Counted from the first letter of the stretch, positions 1-13,393 are shown. The stretch: 24,000 nt of DNA from Desulfuromonas sp. DDH964 (GCF_001611275.1 NZ_CP015080.1:3066956-3090955), one strand, 5' to 3'. Program-made: numbers and translations. The notes: generated by a model not told the origin, from the letters alone.

Positions 1-562
1 GATGCTTTTCGGGAGCATAGGCCTCGCCAAAACGTCCCATGAATGCACCCAGCGAGTCATGCCCTGGCGGCTGATGCTGTCCGACCTTGACCGCTTGCGT
101 GCGCAATTCACCCGGCACCACCCGACATTCCCGGCCGTTATCCGGGTTTGTCATGACCAGGAATTCTTCCGGCAGCAGCACAAAAAAAGCCTGATGCAAC
201 GAGCAGAGGAATTTCTGCCCAGCGATATTGGGGGGCGCCGCCTCGTGCAGCCACTCCTCCATCTGCTGCTGTACCGTAATGTGAGCGATACTTTCCAACT
301 GCAAGTTGCGCTTGGCCGGTTCGGCGTCGTACTGCTGCCGCATGGCCCTGACGATATCGTAGGGATGGGTGTTATGCCCTTCGATGAGATTGGAGTAGTA
401 GCTGTTGATGATGCGCAACAGTTCACGCAGGGTATGCAAGGTAACAGGGTGCTGTCTGGTGCCGAGAGAGGCCGAGCGCTGGACGACCTCCAGGGCCAGA
501 TCCTGAAGATCATCCGCCCCTTCCGGAAGCAGTGGCGTCATCTGGCTGATTGAGTCGGGCAT
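1..562 (-). CDS. Fic/DOC-family protein, N-terminal ~187 codons; 3' end runs off the left edge (absent from the supplied ORF track)
   Basis: My own translation of the minus strand from ATG 562-560 is open to position 1: MPDSISQMTPLLPEGADDLQDLALEVVQRSASLGTRQHPVTLHTLRELLRIINSYYSNLIEGHNTHPYDIVRAM...ECRVVPGELRTQAVKVGQHQPPGHDSLGAFMGRFGEAYAPEKH. The SN-x-IEG-x-x-T block and the PGE-x-R...V-x-VG-x-H-x-PP block are the conserved segments that precede the HPFxxGNGR motif in Fic proteins. The motif itself would lie beyond the edge. Track ORFs 2..553(+) and 151..513(-) look like off-frame shadows. Confidence 0.7.
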   Translation of the reverse strand, partial: MPDSISQMTPLLPEGADDLQDLALEVVQRSASLGTRQHPVTLHTLRELLRIINSYYSNLIEGHNTHPYDIVRAMRQQYDAEPAKRNLQLESIAHITVQQQMEEWLHEAAPPNIAGQKFLCSLHQAFFVLLPEEFLVMTNPDNGRECRVVPGELRTQAVKVGQHQPPGHDSLGAFMGRFGEAYAPEKH

Positions 563-571
563 TGCAGATCC

Positions 572-1023
572 AATATTGCCGATTAATATGCCGGTATCTA
601 CTGTGCACAAAGATACATTTCTATTGAAGAAAATGCAAGTCGGATCAATATTTAACCAATTTTTTTGCCGATTATTCTGCCGATAGGTCGAGCAAGGAAG
701 GCGCATGGGGTCAATATGAAATCTGTAGACGCGTCCCTTCTGCTTTCCCTTTGCCTTGAAAAGCCCGTCAATTAAATATACTGTCCCCGGAATTCCTAAT
801 ATTGCCGATTAATATGCCGATACCTACTGTGCACAAAGATACATTTCTATTGAAGAAAATGCAAGTCGGATCAATATTTAACCAATTTTTTTGCCGATTA
901 TTCTGCCGATAGGTCGAGCAAGGAAGGCGCATGGGGTCAATATGAAATCTGAAGACGCGTCCCTTCTGCTTTCCCTTTGCCTTGAAAAGCCCGTCAATTA
1001 AATATACTGTCCCCGGAATTCCT
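572..1023. repeat. Tandem direct repeat, 2 x 226 bp (572-797 and 798-1023), about 3 substitutions between copies
   Basis: Direct comparison: both units run aatattgccgattaatatgccg...caattaaatatactgtccccggaattcct. Differences are ggtatc/gatacc and ctgtagac/ctgaagac. Each unit holds two dyads of TGCCG(A/G)T half-sites 12 bp apart: 577/589 and 666/678, then 803/815 and 892/904. Unit 1 starts 9 bp upstream of the Fic start codon. Confidence 0.95.
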
Positions 1024-1143
1024 CGACGGATTGCCAAAGAACGAAACGAAAGCCAAGAGCACAACCGAAGAAGCTGCTTGACCCGTCACCCCGCCAAGGG
1101 CGGTAGTGTCAGGTGAATACTATCTCTGTACAGTATTTAGCTG

Positions 1144-1172
1144 TCTACAAATTTCAATTTGAAATCTGTAGA
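1144..1172. repeat. Imperfect palindrome tctacaaatttca-att-tgaaatctgtaga (12 of 13 arm positions pair)
   Basis: Seen directly. The right arm overlaps the start of the third partial copy of the 226-bp unit. Confidence 0.8.
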
Positions 1173-1238
1173 CGCGACCCTTCTGTTTTCCCTTTCCTTG
1201 AAAAGCCCGTCAATTAAATATACTGTCCCCGGAATTCC
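1161..1238. repeat. Third, partial (78-bp) copy of the 3' end of the 226-bp unit
   Basis: gaaatctgtagacgcgacccttctgttttccctttccttgaaaagcccgtcaattaaatatactgtccccggaattcc matches the last ~79 bp of the unit, with 2 substitutions and 1 deletion. Confidence 0.9.
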
Positions 1239-1278
1239 CCCCAAACCCTTCTCTTAATTGTGTGATTTTTAACTGTTA

Positions 1279-2979
1279 CCTGAATCAGTGAGCTTACAAT
1301 CGTAATTTCTTGTTTTATCTTTGACAATTAGCTGATTTTGTTGATCTTTTCTGCTATTATAGAGCCGCCTCAAACTTCACCCAAGGAGATTTTTTCGTGA
1401 CGTTTCCGCGGTTCAACATCGAGCAGTCCGACAGCGAATTCTACACCTCCCAGTCCGGCGTGGCCCTGGTCGGCCTGGCGGTCAACAGGTTCACGTCGTT
1501 GAACGCGCGGGTCGCCAAGGCGGCCCCCTGCAAGGGCATTGCCACGGCCGATGTGCTGCGTTGCTATCTCGGCCTGCTCTGCCAGGGCAAGAGCGACTTC
1601 GAGGCGATCCGGCCTTTTTTCGAGGATGACGAGTTTTTCGCTGCGGCCCTCGGCGTCAACAAGGTCCCGTCACCGGAGACCCTGCGTCAGCGAATGGATG
1701 CCGTCGCCGAGGCGACGATGCGCATTGTCGACTTCTGTACGGTTGAGTTTCTCAAAAAAGCCAAGGCCGAGTTCTCGACGCTTGAGACCGGGCACATGCC
1801 GCTGGATTTGGACGTCTTCACCCAGGACAACTCCAACACCAAGAAAGAGGGGGCCTCCTGGACCTACCGCAAGTTCCACGGCTTCGCCCCGATCGCCGCC
1901 TGGCTGGGCTTGGAGGGGTGGTGTCTGGAGATCGAGCACCGTCCCGGGTCCCAGCATGCCCAGGAGGGCTTTGTCCCCTTTTTGCTGCGGGCGATTCACA
2001 AAAGCCGGCAGTTGACCGAAGCTCCCCTGCTGGTGCGACTGGACAGCGCCCACGATGCCATTGCGACTCTGGTGGCTCTCAAGGAAGAGAAGGTCGACTT
2101 CATCGTCAAGTGGAATCCCCGAGGGACCGACGTGCCGGCCAGAGCCAGCGAGGTCTTTGCCCACGGCAAGATGATCAAGCAGGATAAGACCGGCCGCATC
2201 GCCATCATGACGGAAACGGTCGAGCGCGCCTTCAAGGATGAGGATGACAAGTACCAGACTCTCAAGGTCCGCCGTGTGCTGCGGGCCACGGAACGCTATT
2301 TCGAAAAAGACGGCACCCCGCTGCTGGTCCCGGACATTGAAATCGAGGGCTGGTGGACCAGCCTCTCAAGCGCCAAGGACAAGGTGATCGAACTGTACAA
2401 GGGACACGCCCTGTGCGAGCAGTATCACTCCGAGCTTAAAAGCGATATGGATCTGGAACGTCTGCCGTCAGGCAAGTTCGCCACCAACACCCTGGTCATG
2501 CACTGTGCCGGGCTGGCCTACAACATTCTGCGGGCTGTGGGCCAGGTCGGCCTGATGACCGGCAAGCAGCGTCGGCGGGCCAAACAACGCCGCCGGCTCA
2601 AGACGGTGATTCAGGACCTGGTCTACTTCGCCGGGCGCTTCATCTGCCACGCACACGCCCTGACGTTGCGCTTCAGTCGGCATGCGCATGATCAGTATGA
2701 CGCTTTCAGTAGAACCTATCGACGGTTCGCTTATGGCTGACCGGAACCGAGACAATCAGGGCACGGAATAACCCCACCATCAGGTTGGGGTCGCCATCGC
2801 TCGCCCTGAAACAGACACAGAGAGGCCGCACCATGTAAAAATCAGCTGAATTGTCAAAGAACAGCTCCGCCGATCCGGGAAAACAACCCGGACGGACGGT
2901 GTGAGACTCAAAATCACTCGCGAAAATGACCTCGCGAGGTAAAAATCAGAGGTGCGAGCTGCCACCTCACTGATTCAGG
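1279..2979 (+). mobile_element. IS1380-family-like insertion sequence, copy A (1,701 bp)
   Basis: Boundaries come from comparison with copy B (constant offset of 10,414 bp). Terminal inverted repeats are cctgaatcagtgag (1279-1292) and ctcactgattcagg (2966-2979). The size, the CC-initiated ~14-bp IRs and the single ~447-aa DDE transposase fit IS1380 family members such as ISEcp1. No target-site duplication is visible (left flank tgtta, right flank tggat). Confidence 0.85.
1397..2740 (+). CDS. DDE transposase, IS4 superfamily / IS1380-like
   Basis: 447-aa ORF with a GTG start, preceded by AAGGAGA at 1383-1389. C-terminal YKGHALCEQYHSELK fits the Y-x2-(R/H)-x3-E-x6-K signature of IS4-type transposases. 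A near-identical second copy lies at 11811..13154. Confidence 0.9.
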   Translation: MTFPRFNIEQSDSEFYTSQSGVALVGLAVNRFTSLNARVAKAAPCKGIATADVLRCYLGLLCQGKSDFEAIRPFFEDDEFFAAALGVNKVPSPETLRQRMDAVAEATMRIVDFCTVEFLKKAKAEFSTLETGHMPLDLDVFTQDNSNTKKEGASWTYRKFHGFAPIAAWLGLEGWCLEIEHRPGSQHAQEGFVPFLLRAIHKSRQLTEAPLLVRLDSAHDAIATLVALKEEKVDFIVKWNPRGTDVPARASEVFAHGKMIKQDKTGRIAIMTETVERAFKDEDDKYQTLKVRRVLRATERYFEKDGTPLLVPDIEIEGWWTSLSSAKDKVIELYKGHALCEQYHSELKSDMDLERLPSGKFATNTLVMHCAGLAYNILRAVGQVGLMTGKQRRRAKQRRRLKTVIQDLVYFAGRFICHAHALTLRFSRHAHDQYDAFSRTYRRFAYG

Positions 2980-3005
2980 TGGATCTTCAACTGATTGGTT
3001 TTCAT
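2980..3005 (-). pseudogene. 5' stub (8.7 codons, MKTNQLKI...) of the gene downstream of the decoration-like gene, cut by IS copy A
   Basis: On the minus strand the stop of 3024..3386 is followed by cccAAGGAGccaacgcacATGaaaaccaatcagttgaagatcca. This runs directly into the IS right end at 2979. By position in a head module this would be the major capsid gene, which is inference. Confidence 0.45.
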
Positions 3006-3023
3006 GTGCGTTGGCTCCTTGGG

Positions 3024-3386
3024 TTAGACGAGCAGGCGGAATTTGAGGACGCCGCTCTGTACGGAAATGGCGTGGGCGACGACGTGCTCTCCGGCCGCGA
3101 CGCCGTTGGTCAGGCGACCGCCCGCCGAAACTTTCAAGTCGTCTCCGGCGACGACGGTCCCTTCGAAGGCGTCGGTCTCGTAAACGCCGCCGTCGCAATA
3201 GATGCCGGGCATTTCGCCACCGGCGTAATCCTTTATCAGGATGCCGAAGGAGCGCTTGGTGGGATCGGTGTTGACGGCGAACAGGTCGTCGCCGACCACG
3301 CGGACCACCTGGCCGAGTTGGCCGTCCCCCTGGATGTGGCCGTCGCCATAGGCGAGGCTGCGGTGACACGGATTGATGAATGACAT
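3024..3386 (-). CDS. Small Gly-rich beta-type protein, tentatively phage head-decoration-like (gpD/DUF2190-like)
   Basis: 120-aa ORF with a strong RBS (AAGGAGGAaacaccATG), starting 12 nt after the stop of the upstream fusion gene. FGILIKDYAGGEMPGIYCDGGVYETDAFEG resembles the VGIL...G-x-F core of decoration proteins. The functional call is from memory only. Confidence 0.55.
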   Translation of the reverse strand: MSFINPCHRSLAYGDGHIQGDGQLGQVVRVVGDDLFAVNTDPTKRSFGILIKDYAGGEMPGIYCDGGVYETDAFEGTVVAGDDLKVSAGGRLTNGVAAGEHVVAHAISVQSGVLKFRLLV

Positions 3387-3398
3387 GGTGTTTCCTCC

Positions 3399-5795
3399 TT
3401 ATGCGTTGATTTGCGAGTGTTCGGGAGAGTCCTCGCCGACACGGTTGCGGTAAGCGGCCATGAACCCGTCGCGCAGACGGTCCTCAAGCGACACCTTGCG
3501 GTCGTCCACATCGTGGGGCCGGACACCGGCGTCGCTGCGTAGCGGCGTTTCCGTCGATGCCTTGGCGGCGGGCTTGCCGCCCTGGTCGCTGTCGGCGGGT
3601 TTTTCTTCCTTGTCCTTGTCCGCCTTTGCCGATTTGGGCAGGCGCTCGTAAGCGGCCTCGGTGGCGGCGAAGGCTTCGTCGGACAGTTCGGCCAGGCGTT
3701 TCAGCTCGGCTTCCCGGTCCTCCTCGGACGCAAAGGAGAGCCCCTGTTTCTCCAGCCGGGTGAGCAGTTTCTTGGCGCGGGAGCGACAAGCGGCCGCCTT
3801 TTGTTCGGCTTCCAGTTCCTGGACGCGCTTCTGCAGCTCGGCGACCTGGGCCTTGAGCTGTCGGTTTTCCTTTTCCAGGTCGGAAACGCGAGCGGGATCG
3901 CCTTCCTGCTGGGCCGGTTTCTTCTTGGCCGCTTCGACGGCCGGGTCATCGGTGGGTTTGGTTTTGTCTTCCATCGTGGAATCTCCTTCGGGTTGGGATT
4001 GGTCGGGCTGGCTCTGAAGGGACGCCACCTGCAGAATCCTGGCGTTCTCGTCCGCGCCTTTGCGGTCGAGCAGTCCCAGTCCGGTGAAAGTGACGCCGTG
4101 CAGAATCTCGAAAACGGGTTGGCCGTTGAAATCACGGCCCTTGAATTTGCGCAGGTGGGTGCAGTAGTCGGCCTTGTTCTGGAAGCGCTTGTGGCAGATT
4201 GAGCACTCACCCTCCTGGTAGTCGCATTCCATGGAGACCTGGGAGATGATCCCGCGCTTCATCAGCTTGTAGGCCAGCCGGGCGGCCGGGGTGTCGTGGA
4301 CATACAGCTCGCCGACGCATTCCACGCGGCCGCCGTTGTCGTCCTCCAGGTAGTCGGCGGCGACGATGCCTCCCACGATGTCGTTGAACTCCTGCGAATG
4401 CTGCAGATCGACCTTCTTGTTCACGGCCGTCATGTGCCGACCGGACAACTCCTCGGCGGTGAAGTGGTCGCCGTTCTTGTTGGTCCCGGTGCGGCAGAGC
4501 ACGAAGCTGAACTGGGGGTCGCCCGCCGAGCCGACATCCATGGCCTCGGTCGCGAGACGTTCGCCTTCGCCCAGCCGGATATCCACGGGGATGCTGGTGT
4601 GGAAGTTCGCGGCGGCGGCCATCGGAGCGGGTTTCTCCTCCCGCTCGGCGCTGGCCTTGGCCCCGGGAGCGCAGACGAACAAACGCTCCTTGGCGTTGGA
4701 AGCCTCGCCGTGCTTGGAGGTGATGGCGTAGTGGTGATCCTTGGACTTCATCCGGCTCTGTTTGCCGAAGGAGCCAATGATCCGCTTCATCTCCTGCTCG
4801 TTGGGATAGGCGTGATCGCGGTAGGAGATCAGCCAGTGCGGGATGTGCTTGGCGTTGCCGAGAAAGGTCTGGAAGAACTCGCTGGCGTTGGCCTTGGTGA
4901 CGGTCTTGTGGTCGGTCTCGTAATACTTGACCTTGGTGTCGGCCTTGATTTCGAGCCCTTCCCAATAGGTCATGAGCCCCTCCACGAAGTGGTAGGCCCG
5001 CTCGTAGTTGGTGGTCGAAAACTCGGTGGCGTAGGGCGGATCGAAGTAGGCCAGATCCGCCTTGGCTTTCGGCAGCAGCTCGTTGATGTCCTGCCGGTAT
5101 GCCTTGTTCTCCTTGTCGTTGTCGAAAACCAGGGCGTTGATACGCTGCAGGTTCTTGCGCAAGCGATCCTTGAACTCGTCGGGGGTGTCCTGGCGGCGGC
5201 CATAATCGGTGGACGACGAGAAGTGGCCGAAGCCACCCTTGCCGCTCATGCAGGTTTTTCCGAGGCCGAACAGGGCGATGTCTTTCTTGAAGCCGGAGAG
5301 CTTGTCGCAGTTGGCGCGGATGGTGTCGATCAGCGCATGGACGCCCTTGGCGAAGAAAATGCCCTTGAAGTTGTCCTGAACGAAGCTGCCCGCCTTGGCG
5401 TTGTCGGCCAGGAGTGCCTCGATCTCGTCCTCGCTCAGGCGAACCGAGTTGTTCTCGATGATCGCCTTGGCGGCATGGTGGCAGTAGCGGAGCCGGTCGT
5501 TGGCGATGACCTGGAGGCCCTTGGTCTTGTACATGTAGGCCACGACCGCAGACCCCGAAAAGGCATCCAGCACCGTGCCAGTGCCTTCCGGGGTATGCTT
5601 CCAGATCCAGTCGACGAGCTTTTGCTTACTGCCGATGTAGTTGGTGATGTACTTGGGGCGCTTCTCGGGAGGGAGCTCTTCAGGAGCGGACTGTTCGGCG
5701 GCCTCGGACCCGAGCGTGTCGGGATCGAGAGTCAGCGCCGCATCGGCCTCCAGTAGAAACGCCAGCCTTTCCAGGTCTGTGGCGAACAGTTCCAT
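3399..5795 (-). CDS. Fusion protein: D12/Dam-like N6-adenine DNA methyltransferase + prohead-protease-like domain with zinc knuckle + scaffold-like coiled coil
   Basis: 799-aa track ORF, with TTG at 5798. The likely start is ATG 5795, preceded by GGAGAcgttg. In track numbering the methyltransferase motifs are YIGSK 54-58, FSGSA 80-84 and FDPPY 252-256. Residues ~425-590 read NKNGDHFTAEEL...VDLQHSQE...IISQVSMECDY, with ECSICH...YCTH as a CxxC...CxH knuckle. Residues 636-720 form a heptad-rich charged coiled coil (LEKENRQLKAQVAELQKRVQELEAEQKAA...). Confidence 0.85.
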   Translation of the reverse strand: MELFATDLERLAFLLEADAALTLDPDTLGSEAAEQSAPEELPPEKRPKYITNYIGSKQKLVDWIWKHTPEGTGTVLDAFSGSAVVAYMYKTKGLQVIANDRLRYCHHAAKAIIENNSVRLSEDEIEALLADNAKAGSFVQDNFKGIFFAKGVHALIDTIRANCDKLSGFKKDIALFGLGKTCMSGKGGFGHFSSSTDYGRRQDTPDEFKDRLRKNLQRINALVFDNDKENKAYRQDINELLPKAKADLAYFDPPYATEFSTTNYERAYHFVEGLMTYWEGLEIKADTKVKYYETDHKTVTKANASEFFQTFLGNAKHIPHWLISYRDHAYPNEQEMKRIIGSFGKQSRMKSKDHHYAITSKHGEASNAKERLFVCAPGAKASAEREEKPAPMAAAANFHTSIPVDIRLGEGERLATEAMDVGSAGDPQFSFVLCRTGTNKNGDHFTAEELSGRHMTAVNKKVDLQHSQEFNDIVGGIVAADYLEDDNGGRVECVGELYVHDTPAARLAYKLMKRGIISQVSMECDYQEGECSICHKRFQNKADYCTHLRKFKGRDFNGQPVFEILHGVTFTGLGLLDRKGADENARILQVASLQSQPDQSQPEGDSTMEDKTKPTDDPAVEAAKKKPAQQEGDPARVSDLEKENRQLKAQVAELQKRVQELEAEQKAAACRSRAKKLLTRLEKQGLSFASEEDREAELKRLAELSDEAFAATEAAYERLPKSAKADKDKEEKPADSDQGGKPAAKASTETPLRSDAGVRPHDVDDRKVSLEDRLRDGFMAAYRNRVGEDSPEHSQINA

Positions 5796-5912
5796 CAACG
5801 TCTCCGGTTGGTTTGCTGGGCTCTCCGCGATCTGCGGGGAGCGTTCAGCGGTTACTTACCGGAAGCGTTGGCGATGTGTCGGAGGGTGACGAAATGAGAA
5901 TTTTTTATTGAC

Positions 5913-6012
5913 AATGAACTACCCCGCAGCAAGCTACGGGGTATCAACAGCCTACACCCTTAGTAAAAATCGCGCAGCAAGCTGCGGGGAATTGAACCCA
6001 ACTTTTGATTAA
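5913..6012 (+). repeat. 100-bp element, copy 1; equals 1 nt plus a complete 32-codon mini-ORF (5914..6012)
   Basis: 100/100 identical to 9571..9670. The sequence aATGaactaccccgcagcaagctacggggtatcaacagcctacacccttagtaaaaatcgcgcagcaagctgcggggaattgaacccaacttttgatTAA translates to MNYPAASYGVSTAYTLSKNRAASCGELNPTFD. Two GC hairpins (ccccgcagc-aa-gctacgggg and cgcagc-aa-gctgcg) lie 48 nt (16 codons) apart. Confidence 0.9.
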
Positions 6013-6028
6013 CTAAAAGGAGAGGGAT

Positions 6029-6358
6029 ATGCCACTCATCAATTGCCCAGAATGCTCAACAGAAGTAAGCGATACTGCATTAAAGTGCCCTAAATGTGGG
6101 GTGCAATTGAGAAAACCTAAGCGCGGTTTTTTCGGAAAATTAGTCAAATGGAGCTTTGTCGGCTTCAATATCCTCATGGCAATATGGCTTATAGGCGGCA
6201 TGAACTCGGCTTCTGAAGGAATGCAGGCTCTTTCTGGTGCTGAGCAAGCTGGTGCCGCAATTGGAACCGGCATCGGTGCGATGTTGATTCTCGGCATCTG
6301 GGTGGTTGGAGATATTATCCTTGGCCTTTTTGTGCTCTTTACCCGGCCAAAAGCATAA
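6029..6358 (+). CDS. Zinc-ribbon domain membrane protein
   Basis: 109 aa, with RBS AAAAGGAGAGGG at 6015-6026. N-terminal CPEC-x13-CPKC zinc ribbon, followed by two hydrophobic helices (WSFVGFNILMAIWLIGG and IGAMLILGIWVVGDIILGLFVLF). AT-rich relative to the core genes. Confidence 0.8.
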   Translation: MPLINCPECSTEVSDTALKCPKCGVQLRKPKRGFFGKLVKWSFVGFNILMAIWLIGGMNSASEGMQALSGAEQAGAAIGTGIGAMLILGIWVVGDIILGLFVLFTRPKA

Positions 6359-6378
6359 AAGATCAATATCATATCCAC

Positions 6379-6425
6379 TAGCCCTGAATTACATCTCATC
6401 GCGATGTTGTTCAGGGCTTTTTACT
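6379..6425 (+). terminator. Rho-independent terminator
   Basis: Outer stem agccctgaa/ttcagggct with inner stem acatc/gatgt, followed by tttttactttt, 20 nt after the stop at 6358. Confidence 0.8.
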
Positions 6426-6441
6426 TTTGCGAGGTATTAGC

Positions 6442-6705
6442 ATGAAAAAGATATCACTGATTATCATAACTGTTTTGGCACTTTCTGGGTGCAAGGCTAC
6501 GGTAGAGACAGAAGTTAGTTTGAAGGACATTCTTGAATCAAAGACGAAAACTATTACCGGTGATCTTTTTGTGGAGGTTGCAGGTTGCAACGACTACAAA
6601 GATTCAAGACAACCATCATCCTCCCTTGTGAAGGTACAACAAACCATTCCGAGCATATTCCCAGATGCAAAATATGTTGAGTGTTTTAGGAAAGAGTTTG
6701 ACTCT
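6442..6705 (+). pseudogene. Lipoprotein gene, 5' fragment (88 codons), interrupted by an IS21-family element
   Basis: ATG 6442 follows GAGG at 6431-6434. The signal peptide carries a lipobox (MKKISLIIITVLALSGC). The reading frame continues exactly at 9379 once the IS and one copy of the ACTCT duplication are removed (2,673 bp = 891 codons). Confidence 0.85.
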
Positions 6706-6710
6706 TGCGT

Positions 6711-6848
6711 ATTCCGAGCCAAACTTTCCACCGATTCCGAGCCAAACTTTCCACCGATTCCGATGCAAACTTGCCACTGATTCCGATCCAAACTTGCCAG
6801 TCATTCCGACGCAAGGTTTCCACCCGTTCCGATCCAAACTTTCCAGTT
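6711..6848 (+). repeat. Six tandem ~23-bp subterminal repeats at the IS21 left end (presumed transposase-binding sites)
   Basis: Units are attccgagccaaactttccaccg (twice, identical), attccgatgcaaacttgccactg, attccgatccaaacttgccagtc, attccgacgcaaggtttccaccc and gttccgatccaaactttccagtt. Confidence 0.9.
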
Positions 6849-6972
6849 TGAGCGGAAGAGGTCGGTGAATCTGTCAGACTGATCAAAGTTCTCGCGACGC
6901 TGGGTAACCGCGGGGTACAACCTTCTGGACTTTTTCCAGGAGGTGGTCCCATTGGCACACACGAGGTTATCC

Positions 6973-8499
6973 ATGCGCAAGATCAAGGACGTTCTGCGTC
7001 TGCATTACGAAGCCGGCCTGACACAGCGGGCCATCGCCCGCTCCGTCGGCACGTCACACACCACGGTGGGCGAATTTCTGAGACGCGCCGCTCACGCCGG
7101 GTTGTCTTGGCCGCTGCCAGAGAATCTGGACGAAACCCGACTTGAACAGTTGCTCTTTCCGCCAGCGCCAGTCATTCCCGCCGACCAGCGCCCCATGCCC
7201 GACTGGGCGACCATCCATCAGGAACTCAAGCGCAAGGGCGTCACCCTGGGGCTGCTCTGGGAGGAATACCAGAACAGCCATCCCGAGGGGTATCGCTACA
7301 GCCGTTTCTGCGATCTGTACCGTGAGTGGTCCGGCAAACTGCGTCTGTCGATGCGTCAGGTGCACAAAGCCGGCGAGAAGCTGTTTGTCGACTACACCGG
7401 CCAGACCCTGCCGATCGTCGACCGCCGCACCGGCGAGATCCGCGAAGCGCAACTGTTCGTCGCGGCCCTGGGGGCGAGTTCCCAGACGTTTGCCGAAGCC
7501 ACCTGGACCCAAGGGCTGCCGGACTGGATCGGCTCGCATGTCCGGGCCTTCTCCTTCTACGGCGGAGTGCCCGAGATCGTTGTTCCGGACAACCTGAAAA
7601 GCGCCGTCTCCAAACCCTGCCGCTACGAACCGGACATCAACCCCACCTATGCGGAGCTGGCCGCTCACTATGGCTGCGCGGTGATTCCGGCGCGGGTGCG
7701 CAAACCCAAAGACAAGGCCAAGGTCGAGGCGGCGGTTCTGGTCGCCGAGCGCTTCATCCTGGCGCGGCTGCGCAACCGTACCTTCTTCAGTCTGGCCGAG
7801 GCCAACGCCGCCATTCGGGAGCTGGTGGAGCACCTCAACCGGCGCCCCTTCAAGAAGCTTCCCGGCTGCCGCCAGCAGCTCTTCGACACCCTGGAACGTC
7901 CGGCTCTGAATCCTCTGCCGGCGACCCCCTATACGTTCGCCGAATGGCGCCATGCGCGGGTCAACATCGATTACCATGCCGAAGTCGACCACCACTACTA
8001 CTCGGTCCCGTATGTGCTGGTGAAGCAGCAGCTCGACGTGCGCCTGACGGCGACCACCGTCGAATTTCTGCACAAAGGGCAACGGGTGGCCTCCCATGTC
8101 CGCTCCTCTGAGCGCGGTCGCCACACCACTCTCGGCGAGCACATGCCCAAAAGCCACAGGGAGTATGCCGAATGGACGCCGCAGCGCCTGGTTTCCTGGG
8201 CGGCCAAAACCGGACCGCACACCGCCGCCTTGGCAGAGAAGATCCTGGCCTCACGGGCCCATCCCCAGCAGGGCTACCGCAGCGTCCTGGGGCTGATCCG
8301 GCTGGCCAAGACCTACACGCCCGAGCGCCTGGAGGCGGCCTGCCAGCGGGCCCTGGCAACAAACGCCTGTCGCCTCAAGAGCGTCGCCTCGATCCTCAAA
8401 ACCGGACTGGACCGCCAGTCGCTCCCCGAGTCCACCGAGTCCCAACTCTCATTGCTGCCGAGTCACGACAACATCCGCGGCGCCGGCTACTACCACTGA
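6973..8499 (+). CDS. istA: IS21-family transposase IstA
   Basis: The track ORF 6943..8499 starts at a GTG. ATG 6973 (MRKIKDVLRLHYEAGLTQRAIARSVG...) has GAGG 6 nt upstream. It has an N-terminal HTH and a central DDE integrase-type region, and is followed by istB, the typical IS21 organisation. Confidence 0.9.
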   Translation: MRKIKDVLRLHYEAGLTQRAIARSVGTSHTTVGEFLRRAAHAGLSWPLPENLDETRLEQLLFPPAPVIPADQRPMPDWATIHQELKRKGVTLGLLWEEYQNSHPEGYRYSRFCDLYREWSGKLRLSMRQVHKAGEKLFVDYTGQTLPIVDRRTGEIREAQLFVAALGASSQTFAEATWTQGLPDWIGSHVRAFSFYGGVPEIVVPDNLKSAVSKPCRYEPDINPTYAELAAHYGCAVIPARVRKPKDKAKVEAAVLVAERFILARLRNRTFFSLAEANAAIRELVEHLNRRPFKKLPGCRQQLFDTLERPALNPLPATPYTFAEWRHARVNIDYHAEVDHHYYSVPYVLVKQQLDVRLTATTVEFLHKGQRVASHVRSSERGRHTTLGEHMPKSHREYAEWTPQRLVSWAAKTGPHTAALAEKILASRAHPQQGYRSVLGLIRLAKTYTPERLEAACQRALATNACRLKSVASILKTGLDRQSLPESTESQLSLLPSHDNIRGAGYYH

Positions 8500-8513
8500 C
8501 CAAGGAGACCACC

Positions 8514-9269
8514 ATGCTCAGCCACCCCACCGACGACAAACTGCGCGCCCTCAAGCTGACCGGCATGCTCAAGGCCCTTCAGGAACAGCGCCTTAGCGAG
8601 ACCGCCGATGCCTTGAGCTTCGAGGAGCGCCTCGGCCTGCTGGTCGACCGCGAGCAGACCGAGCGCGACAGCCGCCGGCTCACCACTCGCCTGCGCACGG
8701 CCCGGCTGCGTCAGAGCGCCTGCATCGAGGACCTCGACTGGAGGGCACCCCGGGGACTCGACCGCGACCTCGTGCTGGCGCTGGCCGGCGGTCGCTACCT
8801 CGCCAAGGGCCACAACATTCTCATCACCGGCCCCACCGGCGTCGGCAAGAGCTACCTCGCCTGCGCCTTGGCTCACAAGGCCTGCCGCCTCGGCTGCAAG
8901 ACCCTCTACCTGCGCCTGCCCCGCTTCCTGGAGGAACTGGCCCTCGCGCGGGCCGACGGCCGCTACCCCAAGATGATGGATAGAGTCGCCAAGACTCAAC
9001 TGCTCGTCCTCGACGATTGGGGGCTCGCCCCCATGACCGCCGCCGGTTGCCGCGATCTGCTCGAAATCCTCGAGGACCGCCACAATCTGCGTTCGACCCT
9101 GATCACCAGCCAGCTTCCGGTCGAAGCCTGGCACGACTACCTCGGGGATCCGACGGTCGCCGACGCCATCCTCGACCGCCTCATCCACAACGCCTACCGG
9201 CTCACCTTGAAAGGAGAATCGATGCGCAAACGGCGATCCCAGCTTGACCCGATCGGCAACTTGGCGTAA
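8514..9269 (+). CDS. istB: IS21-family helper ATPase IstB
   Basis: ATG 8514 follows AAGGAG at 8502-8507. Walker A is GPTGVGKS and Walker B is LLVLDDWG. The longer track ORF from 8172 is an upstream-extended shadow. Confidence 0.92.
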   Translation: MLSHPTDDKLRALKLTGMLKALQEQRLSETADALSFEERLGLLVDREQTERDSRRLTTRLRTARLRQSACIEDLDWRAPRGLDRDLVLALAGGRYLAKGHNILITGPTGVGKSYLACALAHKACRLGCKTLYLRLPRFLEELALARADGRYPKMMDRVAKTQLLVLDDWGLAPMTAAGCRDLLEILEDRHNLRSTLITSQLPVEAWHDYLGDPTVADAILDRLIHNAYRLTLKGESMRKRRSQLDPIGNLA

Positions 9270-9300
9270 GACAAAAACTCCAGCGTCGCTACGCTCCGAT

Positions 9301-9368
9301 CACTGGCAACTTTGCCTTGGAACGAGTGGCAACTTTGCGCTGGAACGGCTGGCAACTTTCATCGGAAT
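9301..9368 (+). repeat. Three subterminal ~23-bp repeats at the IS21 right end (inverted relative to the left-end repeats)
   Basis: Units are cactggcaactttgccttggaac, gagtggcaactttgcgctggaac and ggctggcaactttcatcggaat. Their reverse complements match the attccga...aa(a/c)tt(t/g)cca pattern of the left end. Confidence 0.9.
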
Positions 9369-9378
9369 CCGCAACTCT

Positions 9379-9573
9379 TATGCGCGCTTTACTATCCCGG
9401 TGTTTTTAGACAAGGACAAGGACGGAAAACTAGCATCAGAATCACACCTGAATATCATTTCTAACGCAGATTCTCTCTTGATGGTTGGCATTCCTCAGAA
9501 CATTAAGGCGAACATGGAGCGTGTGAAAAATAATAGCTTCGGAACTAGCGCATTTGATTTAAAGGTAAATAAT
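9379..9573 (+). pseudogene. Lipoprotein gene, middle fragment (YARFTIPVFLDKDKDGKL...SAFDLKVNN)
   Basis: Same frame as 6442..6705 after IS excision. The track ORF 9244..9621 is a chimera of the IS21 end, this fragment and read-through into the 100-bp element. Confidence 0.75.
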
Positions 9574-9670
9574 GAACTACCCCGCAGCAAGCTACGGGGT
9601 ATCAACAGCCTACACCCTTAGTAAAAATCGCGCAGCAAGCTGCGGGGAATTGAACCCAACTTTTGATTAA
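9571..9670 (+). repeat. 100-bp element, copy 2 (mini-ORF 9572..9670)
   Basis: Identical to 5913..6012. It lies inside or at the end of the lipoprotein reading frame. AAAGG sits 7-11 nt upstream of its ATG. Confidence 0.9.
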
Positions 9671-9851
9671 AGTAAACAACGATACGGGAAAAGAATTTCC
9701 ATTCAAAGTAATTGCTGCCTATGTTGAAAATCAGCCATACGTTTATGGCGACCTAACATCTAAAGGAAATGGATCTTTCACTGTAACGTTATCTGATGTT
9801 TCGGTCAGCAGTGCATTAGAGAATGGCACAGCTATGGTTTTAATCCGATAA
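9663..9851 (+). CDS. Small ORF (62 aa, TTG start). Either an independent gene or the 3' fragment of the disrupted lipoprotein gene
   Basis: MIKVNNDTGKEFPFKVIAAYVENQPYVYGDLTSKGNGSFTVTLSDVSVSSALENGTAMVLIR. There is no RBS, and the start lies inside the 100-bp element. Its opening IKVNN echoes DLKVNN just before the element. Confidence 0.4.
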   Translation: MIKVNNDTGKEFPFKVIAAYVENQPYVYGDLTSKGNGSFTVTLSDVSVSSALENGTAMVLIR

Positions 9852-9870
9852 TTTATACCAAGGTGGCGAC

Positions 9871-10113
9871 ATGTTTTTAACAATAAACATAACTGATGTT
9901 GAAGACGCGCTAACTCTCAAGAACGGACAATTCATTGAGGCAGTGTTTACTCATGCGTTAGAAATCGTAAATGCTGGTGGCCGCATCATCATTCAGAGGG
10001 AATACATCAATGCACCTCCAACCCTTCTTGATACCTTCACGACCCAGGCGGATTTGGATGGCTGGAAATCGAGAATTGACGATATTCTTTCATGCCTGGA
10101 TGAACAGCAATGA
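9871..10113 (+). CDS. Hypothetical protein (80 aa)
   Basis: ATG follows AAGGTGG. The stop overlaps the next start (ATGA at 10110-10113). I recognise no motif. Confidence 0.6.
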   Translation: MFLTINITDVEDALTLKNGQFIEAVFTHALEIVNAGGRIIIQREYINAPPTLLDTFTTQADLDGWKSRIDDILSCLDEQQ

Positions 10114-10472
10114 TCGAAATCGGGTTTGTCAATGATTGTATTTCGGAGCTGCAATCCTGCCTGGATCAAGGACCTATCGTTTTTTATCAGGGGAAGGAGC
10201 TTCGCAGCCTCAATGAAGAGGTAGTCGGCCGCATCGGCGGGTTGAGAGTGACCATACGCGCCGACGAACACCCCCCACCCCATTTTCATGTCGAGTATAA
10301 CGGCGAAAACAATAGCTTCAGCATCGAAGATGGGGCACCTCTTTATCCAAGCAACGGACTGAAACAGTATTTCCGAAACATCAACAAGTGGCACTCTAAT
10401 AACCGTGCCACCTTGGTTGCTACTTGGAATCGAATGCGGCCGCACAACTGTCCGGTCGGCCCAATCCAGTAG
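10110..10472 (+). CDS. DUF4160 domain protein
   Basis: ADEHPPPHFHVEYNGENNSFSIEDG...NKWHSNNRATLVATWNR matches the E-x-x-PPHFHV...W...L...W signature of DUF4160. It carries ~35 extra N-terminal residues compared with typical members. Confidence 0.7.
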   Translation: MIEIGFVNDCISELQSCLDQGPIVFYQGKELRSLNEEVVGRIGGLRVTIRADEHPPPHFHVEYNGENNSFSIEDGAPLYPSNGLKQYFRNINKWHSNNRATLVATWNRMRPHNCPVGPIQ

Positions 10473-10479
10473 CTTATCT

Positions 10480-10821
10480 TTATACCCGGGCCAGAACGGC
10501 TTTGCCGCAGGCATCGATGGAGGGGTATTCGTCGCTCTCGGTGATCTCGGAAAAGACCCCGTCGTAGGGAGAGCGGGACAGCCGGTGGTATTCGAGAAAA
10601 TCCGCCGGAAGCGAAGTGGCCCCGGCCTCAACCAAACGGTTGACCACCCAGGCAGCCTCATCCTTGCGGTCGGCAAGCCCGTTCGGTCCCCGGTCGAGGT
10701 AGTACATCTCCACATCCAGGCCGGGTCCCGGCCCCTGAACCCAGACGCCCACGGACACGTATTCCGGGACGGTGGCTTGCCGGTCGGCGAGTATCGAGTC
10801 GATCATATAGCGCAGTTTCAT
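10480..10821 (-). CDS. Hypothetical protein (113 aa), last gene of a coupled operon
   Basis: The start overlaps the upstream stop (ATGA at 10818-10821). No recognisable motif. Confidence 0.6.
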   Translation of the reverse strand: MKLRYMIDSILADRQATVPEYVSVGVWVQGPGPGLDVEMYYLDRGPNGLADRKDEAAWVVNRLVEAGATSLPADFLEYHRLSRSPYDGVFSEITESDEYPSIDACGKAVLARV

Positions 10822-11641: not shown

Positions 11642-11692
11642 CTGTTTCTTGAAGTAGAGGGCCGGTGAGGCGTCGCTGGCCGGTTGCTTCTT

Positions 11693-13393
11693 CCTGAATC
11701 AGTGAGCTTACAATCGTAATTTCTTGTTTTATCTTTGACAATTAGCTGATTTTGTTGATCTTTTCTGCTATTATAGAGCCGCCTCAAACTTCACCCAAGG
11801 AGATTTTTTCGTGACGTTTCCGCGGTTCAACATCGAGCAGTCCGACAGCGAATTCTACACCTCCCAGTCCGGCGTGGCCCTGGTCGGCCTGGCGGTCAAC
11901 AGGTTCACGTCGTTAAACTCGCGGGTCAACAAGGCGGCGCCCTGCAAGGGCGTTGCCACGGCCGATGTGCTGCGTTGCTATCTCGGCCTGCTCTGCCAGG
12001 GCAAGAGCGACTTCGAGGCGATCCGGCCTTTTTTCGAGGATGACGAGTTTTTCGCTGCGGCCCTCGGCGTCAACAAGGTCCCGTCACCGGAGACCCTGCG
12101 TCAGCGAATGGATGCCGTCGCCGAGGCGACGATGCGCATTGTCGACTTCTGTACGGTTGAGTTTCTCAAAAAAGCCAAGGCCGAGTTCTCGACGCTTGAG
12201 ACCGGGCACATGCCGCTGGATTTGGACGTCTTCACCCAGGACAACTCCAACACCAAGAAAGAGGGGGCCTCCTGGACCTACCGCAAGTTCCACGGCTTCG
12301 CCCCGATCGCCGCCTGGCTGGGCTTGGAGGGGTGGTGTCTGGAGATCGAGCACCGTCCCGGGTCCCAGCATGCCCAGGAGGGCTTTGTCCCCTTTTTGCT
12401 GCGGGCGATTCACAAAAGCCGGCAGTTGACCGAAGCTCCCCTGCTGGTGCGACTGGACAGCGCCCACGATGCCATTGCGACTCTGGTGGCTCTCAAGGAA
12501 GAGAAGGTCGACTTCATCGTCAAGTGGAATCCCCGAGGGACCGACGTGCCGGCCAGAGCCAGCGAGGTCTTTGCCCACGGCAAGATGATCAAGCAGGATA
12601 AGACCGGCCGCATCGCCATCATGACGGAAACGGTCGAGCGCGCCTTCAAGGATGAGGATGACAAGTACCAGACTCTCAAGGTCCGCCGTGTGCTGCGGGC
12701 CACGGAACGCTATTTCGAAAAAGACGGCACCCCGCTGCTGGTCCCGGACATTGAAATCGAGGGCTGGTGGACCAGCCTCTCAAGCGCCAAGGACAAGGTG
12801 ATCGAACTGTACAAGGGACACGCCCTGTGCGAGCAGTATCACTCCGAGCTTAAAAGCGATATGGATCTGGAACGTCTGCCGTCAGGCAAGTTCGCCACCA
12901 ACACCCTGGTCATGCACTGTGCCGGGCTGGCCTACAACATTCTGCGGGCTGTGGGCCAGGTCGGCCTGATGACCGGCAAGCAGCGTCGGCGGGCCAAACA
13001 ACGCCGCCGGCTCAAGACGGTGATTCAGGACCTGGTCTACTTCGCCGGGCGCTTCATCCGCCACGCGCACGCCCTGACGTTGCGCTTCAGTCGGCATGCG
13101 CATGATCAGTATGACGCCTTCAGCAGAACCTACCGACGGTTCGCTTATGGCTGACCGGAACCGAGACAATCAGGGCACGGAACAACCCCACCATCAGGTT
13201 GGGGTCGCCATCGCTCGCCCTGAAACAGACACAGAGAGGCCGCACCATGTAAAAATCAGCTGAATTGTCAAAGAACAGCTCCGTCAACCTGAAAAAACAA
13301 TCCGGACGGACGGTGTGACACTCAATAAGGCTCGCGAAAAAGGCCTCGCGAGACAAAAACCAGAGGTACGAACTGCTACATCACTGATTCAGG
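11693..13393 (+). mobile_element. IS1380-family-like insertion sequence, copy B (1,701 bp)
   Basis: Same length and IRs as copy A (cctgaatcagtga... and ...tcactgattcagg). No target duplication (flanks ttctt and attca). Confidence 0.85.
11811..13154 (+). CDS. DDE transposase, IS4 superfamily / IS1380-like (copy B)
   Basis: 447 aa, differing from copy A at only 4 residues (A37S, A40N, I47V, C421R). Confidence 0.9.
   Translation: MTFPRFNIEQSDSEFYTSQSGVALVGLAVNRFTSLNSRVNKAAPCKGVATADVLRCYLGLLCQGKSDFEAIRPFFEDDEFFAAALGVNKVPSPETLRQRMDAVAEATMRIVDFCTVEFLKKAKAEFSTLETGHMPLDLDVFTQDNSNTKKEGASWTYRKFHGFAPIAAWLGLEGWCLEIEHRPGSQHAQEGFVPFLLRAIHKSRQLTEAPLLVRLDSAHDAIATLVALKEEKVDFIVKWNPRGTDVPARASEVFAHGKMIKQDKTGRIAIMTETVERAFKDEDDKYQTLKVRRVLRATERYFEKDGTPLLVPDIEIEGWWTSLSSAKDKVIELYKGHALCEQYHSELKSDMDLERLPSGKFATNTLVMHCAGLAYNILRAVGQVGLMTGKQRRRAKQRRRLKTVIQDLVYFAGRFIRHAHALTLRFSRHAHDQYDAFSRTYRRFAYG

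Follow-up and report, generated by a model that had tools for sequence, protein, structure and literature searches.

The gene found at 3399..5795 (minus strand) of the window, i.e. the whole 24,000-nt stretch of DNA analysed here, is complete (798 codons plus stop, as seen in the ORF list and the translation) and is probably a phage head-assembly gene yielding both a full-length polyprotein and a scaffold-only protein, by which a methyltransferase (MTase) is carried into the head. In the full-length product (88 kDa), a D12 MTase at the N-terminus is followed by a Ser/His prohead protease that contains a zinc knuckle, and the scaffold occupies the C-terminal part. A first-pass annotation had proposed three modules within one ORF of ~798 codons, and MTase, protease and helical scaffold were all recovered. 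The motifs it had pointed out were encountered at their places, namely YIGSK (aa 54), FSGSA (aa 80), DPPY (aa 253), NKNGDHF (aa 440), LQHS (aa 465), VSME (aa 521), CSIC (aa 532) and CTH (aa 546).

The ORF started with an ATG at 5795, with an in-frame TTG at 5798-5796, and ended with a stop codon at 3401-3399. Direct reading of the sequence revealed a GGAG ribosome-binding site (5802..5805, minus strand) six nt upstream of this ATG. The closest database cluster (P0001) was of the same length as the 798-aa product counted from the ATG, more than 120 database clusters were 97-99 % identical to the protein, and phrog_27806 matched it over its full length (1743 bits). The ORF was intact in the window and 99 % identical to copies residing in a functional context. 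More than 100 distinct sequences kept the MTase fusion, down to ~44 % identity; the fusion is thus real, and its conservation ruled out a frameshift or an assembly artefact as its source.

The D12-class N6-adenine DNA MTase domain extended over aa ~50-375 (4674..5651, minus strand), with a Pfam core at aa 54-294 (window 4917-5639). The D12-like MTase proposed in the first-pass annotation was recognised by MethyltransfD12 (PF02086) well above the gathering score (E 7e-26, 91.8 bits, cut-off 22), and it displayed both the SAM-binding motif I (FxGxG/A, here FSGSA at aa 80) and the catalytic motif IV (DPPY at aa 253). Motifs of the DPPY and FxGxG types were kept in all 117 unique homologous ORFs, and the domain is predicted to be catalytically intact. 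It did not qualify for the Dam subfamily, as NCBIfam model TIGR00571 scored 25 bits versus a cut-off of 114.85 and aligned to the N-terminal ~50 residues only. No MTase was matched at E<=1e-3 in a PDB sequence search with this domain. The linker between MTase and protease was variable except for a conserved motif, HTSIPV(D/E), at aa 400-406 (4581..4601, minus strand), which was recognisable in alignments of homologues down to 44 % identity; it may be where the polyprotein is processed, or else an N-terminal arm belonging to the protease.

The first-pass assignment of aa 400-799 to a protease and a scaffold withstood structure and profile searches: similarity to proteases was found at aa 425-594, and the residues beyond were helical and scaffold-like, with a conserved internal start of their own. 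Residues 425-594 (4017..4526, minus strand) are predicted to be a prohead (capsid maturation) serine protease of the herpesvirus-assemblin/HK97 gp4 fold. The AlphaFold2 (AF2) model displayed pLDDT values above 90 over this region. A Foldseek comparison with BFVD yielded 178 viral structures at E<=1e-3; prohead protease and head-maturation protease were frequent names among these, and Bacillus phage G gp19 ranked first (E 4e-18). Its top PDB matches were herpesvirus proteases (pseudorabies, VZV, HCMV, EBV, KSHV; probability 0.9-1.0). Profile scores were lower: Peptidase_S78 (PF04586) reached 19.3 versus 21 bits (E 1e-3) and TIGR01543 21.1 versus 59 bits, while four PHROG "head maturation protease" families matched weakly (E 0.007-0.02). 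A PDB sequence search with aa 395-799 returned coiled-coil noise only.

The predicted catalytic residues are His467 (codon 4398..4400, minus strand), conserved in 113 of 113 homologues, and Ser522 of the VSMEC motif (codon 4233..4235, minus strand), conserved in 112 of 113 and invariant in alignment A1. In an hhalign alignment that was itself weak (E 0.012), they fell onto His65 and Ser114 of HK97 gp4, the catalytic residues of that enzyme. Since the curated models stayed below their cut-offs and the hhalign match was weak, it is chiefly the predicted fold, together with residue conservation, that carries the protease assignment. Of the NKNGDHF...LQHS...VSME spacing pointed out in the first-pass annotation, the His of NKNGDHF was kept in 111 of 113 MTase-fused sequences but was not conserved in a wider alignment taking in stand-alone proteases, and was rejected as the catalytic histidine in favour of the His of LQHS (His467). 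The zinc knuckle said to be inserted in the domain is indeed present as CSIC and CTH (C532, C535, C546, H548; 4155..4205, minus strand). It was invariant in 113 of 113 aligned homologues, its CxxC...CxH pattern was present in 117 of 117 unique ORFs, and C2H2 zinc-finger profiles matched it weakly.

The remaining C-terminal part contained a nested in-frame gene, Met609-Ala799 (191 aa plus stop; 3399..3974, minus strand), preceded by an internal Shine-Dalgarno (SD) sequence, AAGGAG, lying in the coding frame eight nt before the internal ATG (3983..3988, minus strand). An (A)GGAG(G) sequence 7-8 nt ahead of an in-frame ATG, GTG or TTG at Met609 was conserved in 34 of 35 distinct variants, to 44 % identity, although the surrounding linker was otherwise variable. 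The Gly codon within this SD was always GGA, against a background GGA use of 11 %, and Met609 is precisely the first residue of database proteins 175-195 aa in length. From the internal SD and Met609, a nested product consisting of the scaffold alone is predicted, as in Mu I/Z and lambda C/Nu3; they are the strongest evidence for a Mu- or lambda-like logic. The first-pass annotation did not mention this nested start. The MTase-protease junction, taken as a control, displayed no conserved start or SD outside the clade of at least 97 % identity; with no conserved start before it, the protease seems, across the family, never to be produced other than in fusion with an MTase. Within the window's own clade, GGGAGGAG was located 12 nt before Met393, and this start could give some MTase-free protease there. 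Being confined to the clade of at least 97 % identity, Met393 and its SD were discarded as a second internal start of the family.

The coiled-coil and scaffold-like character attributed to this region in the first-pass annotation was found again in the AF2 model, in which a long coiled-coil helix of 50 residues (aa 635-684; 3747..3896, minus strand; pLDDT ~95) was followed by more helices up to aa 787. Trimer_CC and other coiled-coil Pfam models matched here as well. The C-terminal tail (R.DA.VRP.D..D.K.SLED.L..GFMAAY..RV, aa 754-787; 3438..3539, minus strand), which included an AF2 helix at aa 771-787, was at least 80 % conserved among 51 homologues less than 70 % identical and is a candidate capsid-binding element.

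Intact relatives of the locus displayed the order terminase, portal, MuF, cargo slot, fusion gene, decoration protein and HK97-fold major capsid protein (MCP), followed by connectors, sheath, tube and tape measure. Baseplate genes, an integrase and a replication module also belong to this phage, which is a temperate myovirus. The position of the fusion gene was checked in intact loci L002-L005, L163 and L164. There, intact homologues were situated between the portal/MuF and decoration/HK97-fold capsid genes, not away from capsid genes; proximity to portal and major capsid genes was true of these loci and false in the window, where the module is broken. No Pfam or PHROG match to another protease or scaffold was obtained in the head module of the intact loci, and the fusion gene appears to be the only head-module gene encoding either function. 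The intact 287-aa capsid homologue matched the phrog_2522 major head protein (E 3e-98) and the HK97-fold MCP model NF042927 (300 bits). The MuF genes of the phage bear variable C-terminal extensions (519 or 1529 aa), and the cargo slot was occupied by a restriction-modification (R-M) system in L002-L004.

The fusion, with one or two MTases, persisted to ~44 % identity across more than 10 phyla. An N-terminal D12 domain was displayed by 16 of 20 distant long relatives, and ~36 relatives carried two D12 domains. IMG/VR contributed ~80 viral contigs with the fusion gene. An 18.5-kb structural module was 95-97 % nucleotide-identical in isolate genomes of three phyla, Thermodesulfobacteriota, Pseudomonadota and Kiritimatiellota. 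P0145 was a genuine stand-alone protease-scaffold; P0130, considered as another, was dropped as it sits at a contig edge. The apparent presence of different integrases in different hosts (blastn boundaries ~1013 of L004) was a locus-edge artefact. When the region was compared by megablast with isolated phages, with E. coli genomes and with plasmids, no match was obtained, and tblastn against phages retrieved separate MTase or protease-domain matches only, without any fusion. In the open-access and bioRxiv literature searched, no published description was found of an MTase-prohead protease fusion or of the cross-phylum phage. The available text of the polyvalent-protein survey describes MuF and DarB-type architectures, and an MTase-protease-scaffold architecture was not found in it.

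The domain identities, the conservation of the fusion, its nested start and its head-module position are established here, and this architecture strongly implies that the MTase is encapsidated. Most of the assembly core would consist of the scaffold-only protein, and the shared C-terminal scaffold and tail would co-assemble fewer full-length molecules inside the procapsid. As the protease appears to have no start of its own across the family, each protease molecule entering the procapsid would bring an MTase along. Once the shell is complete, scaffold digestion by the protease would follow, as would its own release by cleavage, and the folded ~43-kDa domain would most likely stay trapped with the packaged DNA. 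It might then methylate the phage DNA as this enters the head or, in what was judged the likelier option, exit with the DNA at infection and guard it against host restriction, like P1 DarB.

Another order of events is conceivable, in which cleavage would separate the MTase from the polyprotein while still in the cytoplasm, ahead of assembly. The fusion would then serve timing and location, not delivery: an MTase produced late, together with the head proteins, and released by the protease or remaining on unassembled polyprotein, would methylate replicated DNA in the cytoplasm before or during packaging, and would be neither present in the mature virion nor injected. Soluble orphan MTases are used by many phages to modify their own DNA ahead of packaging, cleavage at the conserved HTSIPVE/LxxEA junction motif could free the enzyme, and Met393 may serve as an additional start in the window's clade. 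In HK97 and T4, however, prohead proteases with such a fold work inside the assembled procapsid, and a polypeptide whose C-terminus is a scaffold gets built into the core. Because no independent protease start is conserved family-wide, the MTase would have to travel with the protease at least into the procapsid, from which a folded domain of ~43 kDa would be unlikely to escape through capsid pores. A purely cytoplasmic role was considered unlikely, and carriage into the head is retained as the preferred reading.

In the window, the surroundings of the gene were those of a prophage relic. Twelve nt downstream (start at 3386) was a gene for a 120-aa head decoration (cement) protein (3024..3386, minus strand), in agreement with the first-pass annotation. 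Its AF2 model (pLDDT 86) matched by Foldseek, among PDB structures, the decoration proteins of T1, phi29 (gp8.5 base), HFTV1, Pam3 and TW1 (TM 0.6-0.72). The gene in capsid position, to which a strong ribosome-binding site had been attributed, did have one (AAGGAG, 3015-3020; ATG at 3005) but was not intact: only eight native codons of the major capsid gene were left (2980..3020, minus strand; sequence and blastn boundary), the gene being interrupted at 2979/2980 by the inverted repeat of an insertion sequence, and so the window copy lacks a capsid gene. This IS copy 1 (1701 bp; 1279..2979, plus strand), delimited by self-blast, Pfam and direct reading of its ends, displayed a DDE_Tnp_1_4 transposase at 1397-2740 and 14-bp inverted repeats CCTGAATCAGTGAG. 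IS copy 2 (11693..13393, plus strand; self-blast) was 98 % identical to it, lay in the same orientation and truncated the MuF gene. Directly upstream of the fusion gene, the variable cargo slot was filled by a 4.6-kb insertion (5892..10485), whose boundaries fell at adjacent positions in L005 (blastn) and in which a Zn-ribbon membrane protein, a DUF7424 lipoprotein, IS21-family istA/istB and a small ORF were recognised (Pfam). Beyond it, an upstream phage remnant (10486..11692, minus strand), delineated by blastn and L005 gene calls, comprised a 117-aa gene, a 170-aa gene and, from the end of the MuF-fusion gene, ~365 nt, and was 95 % identical to L005 5550-6756. The relic state of the locus, IS-bounded and with a truncated capsid gene, had escaped the first-pass annotation.

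Although its ORF is intact, the window copy resides in a prophage fragment bounded by IS elements. It cannot build heads and could at most act as an orphan MTase. It might be held on these grounds that the gene is only a leftover of a decayed prophage, possibly moved as a composite transposon: homology to the phage was confined to 2980-5891 and 10486-11692 (blastn), capsid and MuF genes were truncated, two directly repeated IS copies flanked the segment, and no portal, terminase or tail genes were found within the 24,000-nt window. Such an account, which we regard as improbable, concerns the state of this copy and not the design of the gene, which is explained by the intact loci. The idea of a composite transposon moving as a unit was rejected, as no target-site duplications were found at the IS copies. 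The encapsulin-like shell entertained in the first-pass annotation recalls the present system by its HK97-fold shell protein and by a targeting logic resembling encapsulin cargo loading, but the locus is a tailed-phage head module accompanied by genes for packaging, tail, baseplate, integration and replication, a major capsid model of Caudoviricetes recognises the shell protein and the fusion gene occurs on viral contigs of IMG/VR, and cargo of a nanocompartment is hardly credible.

Carriage of the MTase into the virus head, if true, would show that enzymes are naturally loaded into HK97-fold capsids by a new route, usable for engineered cargo delivery. Proteins are known to be smuggled into heads by short targeting peptides in T4, by helper-dependent signals in the case of P1 Dar, and by MuF; in the present gene this task would fall to the essential protease-scaffold, which would make encapsidation of the enzyme obligatory and fix its amount relative to the protease. 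There would also be a new class of virion-borne DNA MTases, now labelled only "DNA adenine methylase" in databases, for which methylome and R-M surveys would need to account. The annotation is corrected here for thousands of database entries whose C-terminal 400 residues were unannotated. A testable link would further emerge between capsid-delivered DNA modification and the unusually wide cross-phylum spread of this phage lineage. In its boldest form, the MTase would be obligatorily packed in every virion, in tens of copies, and injected as a host-independent anti-restriction device that, with the variable MuF effectors, helps to explain the 18.5-kb module shared by three phyla; this is doubtful at present and, if true, would imply a host range far beyond that accepted for tailed phages.

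Among known systems, the closest in organisation are Mu I/Z and lambda C/Nu3, in which a protease gene contains a nested in-frame scaffold gene; the lambda order B-C/Nu3-D-E corresponds to portal, protease/scaffold, decoration and capsid. As in both, the gene described here follows the portal (and MuF) and precedes the genes for decoration and major capsid proteins, and encodes an N-terminal protease and a C-terminal scaffold in one frame, with an internal start served by its own ribosome-binding site. Unlike both, it displays a D12 MTase of ~390 aa, or two, before the protease, as well as a CxxC...CxH zinc knuckle within it. Lambda C is ClpP/S49-like, in contrast to the HK97 gp4/assemblin type encountered here, and no sequence match of the fusion protein to Mu or lambda proteins was seen.

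HK97 gp4 (MEROPS S78) shares the fold class, and its His65 and Ser114 align with His467 and Ser522. According to Duda et al. 2013, its C-terminal part reportedly directs encapsidation; the job of the scaffold is done in HK97 by the delta domain of the capsid protein. The present fusion differs from gp4 by its zinc knuckle, its long separate scaffold and its N-terminal enzyme domain. The isolated-phage protein closest to the protease domain was gp19 of Bacillus phage G (31 % identity over aa 438-604, E 3e-11), which is likewise encoded in the head module between portal and capsid genes; it is only 300 aa long, is devoid of MTase and is not annotated as a protease in its record.

In T4, internal proteins and Alt bear a capsid targeting sequence (CTS) that is cleaved by the prohead protease. 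This sequence also encapsidates foreign proteins (PMC3012670), and MuF is a carrier of injected effectors (PMC5512222). In these systems, attachment to a component of head assembly takes effectors into the prohead, from which they leave together with the DNA (PMC3012670, PMC5512222), as would apply here; the carrier of the present fusion would be the essential protease-scaffold and neither a short CTS nor MuF. The anti-restriction protein DarB of phage P1 contains an MTase and is packaged in the head by means of a capsid-targeting signal; it is believed to accompany the DNA into the cell, which it protects in cis against restriction (PMC9024508, PMC5512222). What it has in common with the design predicted here is a DNA adenine MTase domain built into a myovirus head. 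DarB differs in being a separate 250-kDa protein that depends on a 30-residue N-terminal signal and on helper Dar proteins, and in having an MTase of a different family coupled to an SF2 helicase; in the fusion described here there is no helicase, and the carrier would be the protease-scaffold itself.

The fusion gene occupied a minus-strand open frame of 800 codons (5798 to 3399 in the ORF listing of the window), which begins with TTG (residue 1 in our numbering) followed directly by ATG at 5795; a GGAG was found 6 nt 5' of this ATG. The first-pass annotation had placed the gene at 3399-5795, exactly the extent from ATG to stop, and the motifs it had read were all recovered (YIGSK at residue 54, FSGSA at 80, DPPY at 253, NKNGDHF at 440, LQHS at 465, VSME at 521, CSIC at 532 and CTH at 546). 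The 486-aa ORF on the plus strand (4296-5756) was rejected as a shadow ORF, the DNA having 62 % G+C. For the minus-strand product, Pfam gave a strong match, and over 500 of the scored candidates were homologues. Public annotation designates the protein just as 'DNA adenine methylase' or 'DNA methyltransferase'. Its N-terminal domain is indeed a D12-class N6-adenine methyltransferase (PF02086, aa 54-294, 92 bits against a cut-off of 22, E 7e-26). It fell outside the Dam subfamily as defined by NCBI (25 bits against 115), and a PDB sequence search with this domain detected no relative.

The middle domain matched known prohead proteases only below threshold: 19 bits for Peptidase_S78 (cut-off 21), 21 bits for TIGR01543 (cut-off 59) and E-values of 0.007-0.02 for four PHROG 'head maturation protease' families. 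Residues 395-799 were therefore searched against 1.8 billion cluster representatives, 31 relatives were aligned (alignment A1) and the structure was predicted. The fold of residues 425-594 was predicted with a pLDDT above 90 and gave 178 matches at E<=1e-3 among predicted viral structures. The best of these was gp19 of Bacillus phage G (4e-18), and many others, at 1e-9 to 1e-11, were annotated as prohead or head-maturation proteases. Top PDB matches were herpesvirus assemblin proteases (probability 0.9-1.0), whose fold is common to HK97 gp4 and T4 gp21. A weak profile-sequence alignment with HK97 gp4 (E 0.012) placed the catalytic residues of gp4, His65 and Ser114, on His467 and Ser522. The former was found in all 113 distinct homologues and the latter in 112, and the inserted CxxC...CxH knuckle was invariant at its four ligand positions. 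The histidine initially favoured, that of NKNGDHF, was not conserved across the wider family in alignment A1.

The C-terminal region was modelled as a 50-residue helix (aa 635-684) followed by shorter helices, the last spanning aa 771-787. Its tail motif, R.DA.VRP.D..D.K.SLED.L..GFMAAY..RV, was kept in homologues of less than 70 % identity. The linker between protease and scaffold was variable apart from x-[EKQ]-G-[DEG]-x-x-M, which at the nucleotide level reads AAGGAG or AAGGAGG, 7-8 nt before an ATG. In the window, this internal Shine-Dalgarno (SD) sequence AAGGAG is located on the minus strand at 3983-3988 and the ATG at 3972-3974. Among homologues ranging from 99 % to 44 % identity, this 18-nt stretch occurred in 35 distinct variants, 34 of which displayed (A)GGAG(G) at a spacing of 7-8 nt. 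The glycine codon within it was always GGA, which accounts for only 11 % of the glycine codons in these genes, and variants without methionine displayed GTG or TTG instead. In addition, the representative library holds proteins of 175-195 aa starting exactly at this methionine. Such a conserved SD and start codon is, at the sequence level, the signature of an internal translation start, from which a 191-aa scaffold-only protein of ~21 kDa would be produced in the same frame as the full-length product of ~88 kDa.

As a control, the same analysis was run at the junction between methyltransferase and protease. Met393 and its GGGAGGAG (12-nt spacing) were limited to the clade of at least 97 % identity; more distant relatives displayed neither start codon nor SD at this position. 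Judging from these sequences, the protease therefore appears to be produced solely as a methyltransferase fusion throughout the family. The junction itself displayed a conserved peptide motif, AAN[FC]HTSIPVE followed by LxxEA, which could be a processing site.

Loci with homologues of 97-99 % identity revealed the genomic setting. Their gene order was integrase, four small genes, large terminase, portal, MuF minor head protein, a variable slot, the fusion gene, a 120-aa gene, a 287-aa gene, connector genes, sheath, tube and tape measure; baseplate, PAAR and fibre-like genes followed. On the other side of the integrase lay a replication module (primase, RecD2-like helicase, DUF669 and AAA_24). 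The 287-aa product was identified as the major capsid protein, of HK97 fold, by phrog_2522 (E 3e-98) and NF042927 (300 bits, cut-off 80). The model of the 120-aa protein (pLDDT 86) matched decoration or cement proteins of T1, phi29 (gp8.5 base), HFTV1, Pam3 and TW1 with TM-scores of 0.6-0.72, which bears out the earlier suggestion that a head decoration protein follows the fusion gene. No other protease or scaffold gene was found in the head module according to Pfam and PHROG matches. An intact locus is thus a complete temperate myovirus, and not the encapsulin locus that had been proposed as an alternative.

MuF was encountered in two forms, of 519 aa with an endonuclease VII-like region (intact phage locus L004, 5460-7019) and of 1529 aa (intact phage locus L005, 1326-5915), as is typical of MuF-carried polymorphic effectors. 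MuF is known to carry injected effectors (PMC5512222), and its variable extensions fit a phage investing in virion-borne effectors. The cargo slot just upstream of the fusion gene harbored a PstI/BsuBI-type restriction-modification system in loci L002-L004 (L004 6956-9886). Genes of 170 and 117 aa adjoined it in L005 and in another intact locus, L163, and are still present in the window. A second slot, at the boundary between head and tail genes (L005 12257-15446), carried metal resistance genes for a metal-sensing repressor, a cation efflux protein and a HupE/UreJ protein.

The window itself holds a broken prophage. By blastn, phage homology was restricted to two segments. One (2980-5891) takes in the fusion gene, the decoration gene and 26 nt at the 5' end of the capsid gene; the other (10486-11692) has two small genes together with the 3' part of a MuF-fusion gene. 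The gene that the first-pass annotation had seen in the major-capsid position does possess an AAGGAG ribosome-binding site and an ATG (3005); it runs into an IS inverted repeat after eight codons. Two IS copies of 1701 bp (1279-2979 and 11693-13393), 98 % identical and in the same orientation, bracket the prophage fragment; they encode a 447-aa DDE_Tnp_1_4 transposase and end in 14-bp inverted repeats CCTGAATCAGTGAG. Neither the individual copies nor the pair were flanked by target site duplications, a pattern that points to deletion or recombination through the IS more than to a simple insertion. A 4.6-kb insertion (5892-10485), which carries IS21-family genes and genes for small membrane proteins or lipoproteins, occupies precisely the variable slot that precedes the fusion gene. 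Within it, a perfect 100-bp direct repeat (5913-6012 and 9571-9670), each copy with two near-palindromic hairpins (CCCCGCAGCAAGCTACGGGG and CGCGCAGCAAGCTGCGGGG), flanks a low-G+C segment with a Zn-ribbon gene, a DUF7424 lipoprotein gene and IS21 istA/istB. Left of the first IS copy were tandem repeats of ~225 bp (569-1023, 98 % identical) and a further partial one of ~86 bp (1154-1238). The remainder (13.4-24 kb) had a chromosomal appearance. This copy is incapable of making heads; the fusion ORF itself is intact.

Of 20 long relatives, whose C-terminal modules were 40-66 % identical, 16 had the N-terminal D12 domain. A large subgroup of about 50 % identity, with ORFs of ~1290 aa, displayed two tandem D12 domains and two DPPY motifs ahead of the same protease-scaffold (related loci L041-L060, L063, L065, L067-L069, L073, L074, L080, L083 and others). 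Protease-scaffold proteins of 350-450 aa were also encountered as stand-alone products, and at least one of their genes has its own upstream intergenic region; the methyltransferase was therefore added to an older protease-scaffold gene. In three rows of alignment A1 (protein clusters P0124, P0142 and P0155), an unannotated N-terminal domain of ~110 aa with the motif IRxRVxDPxxFxPDSFR...GKLKPE replaced the methyltransferase.

The fused gene was found in about 80 loci in each of a genome scan and a virome scan, in phyla including Thermodesulfobacteriota, Pseudomonadota, Verrucomicrobiota/Kiritimatiellota, Hydrogenedentota, Armatimonadota, Myxococcota, Acidobacteriota, Chloroflexota, Planctomycetota and Nitrospirota. 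Intact lysogens include strains of Pseudodesulfovibrio, Desulfosarcina alkanivorans PL12 and Geoalkalibacter subterraneus. More than one copy was present in several genomes. Four were encountered in one Myxococcota MAG (L037-L040) and four on the Bryobacterales chromosome OZ252029.1 (L057, L058, L067, L068), presumably representing four prophage copies each time; Desulfobulbus rhabdoformis and a Desulfatitalea MAG displayed two each.

Comparison of loci L002-L032, L163 and L165 with L004 uncovered about 18.5 kb of head-tail module sharing 95-97 % nucleotide identity between different phyla. Carriers were Pseudodesulfovibrio, Desulfomicrobium, Desulfosarcina alkanivorans (complete genome), Desulfofustis, Ectothiorhodospira shaposhnikovii (Gammaproteobacteria; scaffolds) and a Verrucomicrobiota MAG. 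In Kiritimatiella glycovorans, whose chromosome of 2.95 Mb is complete, the shared part is limited to the 12.5 kb on the downstream side of the cargo slot. Similarity in patches, at 75-83 % identity, was also seen in Acidobacteriota, Chloroflexota, Planctomycetota and others. Binning errors in MAGs are no explanation for isolate genomes with the module. No paper on such a cross-phylum phage module was found in the open-access and bioRxiv literature searched, and this finding may outweigh the fusion in importance; a tie between the two, through a virion-borne methyltransferase, is speculative. In the Kiritimatiella locus (L165, CP010904.1), positions 1-9886, upstream of the fusion gene, carry LysR, MetE, an SHMT fragment, an IS3-type transposase and others in place of MuF, portal and terminase. 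The break coincides with the cargo-slot junction, and the segment is either a very large cargo or the mark of a truncated prophage. L163 (GCA_042437335.1, labelled Pasteurella multocida) is a 62 % G+C phage copy on a 223-kb contig, possibly a contamination or mislabelling; P. multocida has about 40 % G+C.

The data directly show what the domains are, the nested start, the place of the gene among the head genes and the retention of the fusion. Since the apparently sole protease-bearing polypeptide ends in a scaffold, which co-assembles inside the procapsid, entry of the methyltransferase into the procapsid is strongly implied. Autoproteolysis would then free the methyltransferase, and its domain of ~43 kDa would stay with the DNA. 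The main rival holds that the fusion merely ties methylation to late gene expression, the enzyme never being present in the mature virion; we consider this improbable. An encapsidated methyltransferase may act either on the DNA being packaged or, as the analogies of P1 DarB (PMC9024508, PMC5512222) and T4 internal proteins (PMC3012670) would have it, in the next host, into which it would be ejected and where it would shield the DNA from restriction.

A fusion of methyltransferase and prohead protease was not found described in the open-access and bioRxiv literature searched, which leaves its absence unproven. What appears new is the combination of a methyltransferase with what seems to be the sole prohead protease, the zinc-knuckle protease subfamily below curated family thresholds, and the implied obligatory co-encapsidation of the enzyme. 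HK97-type proteases, head-packaged methyltransferases and nested protease-scaffold genes are already known. Mu I/Z and lambda C/Nu3 display the nested in-frame arrangement of protease and scaffold, and the predicted in-frame scaffold-only product of the fusion gene is like theirs.
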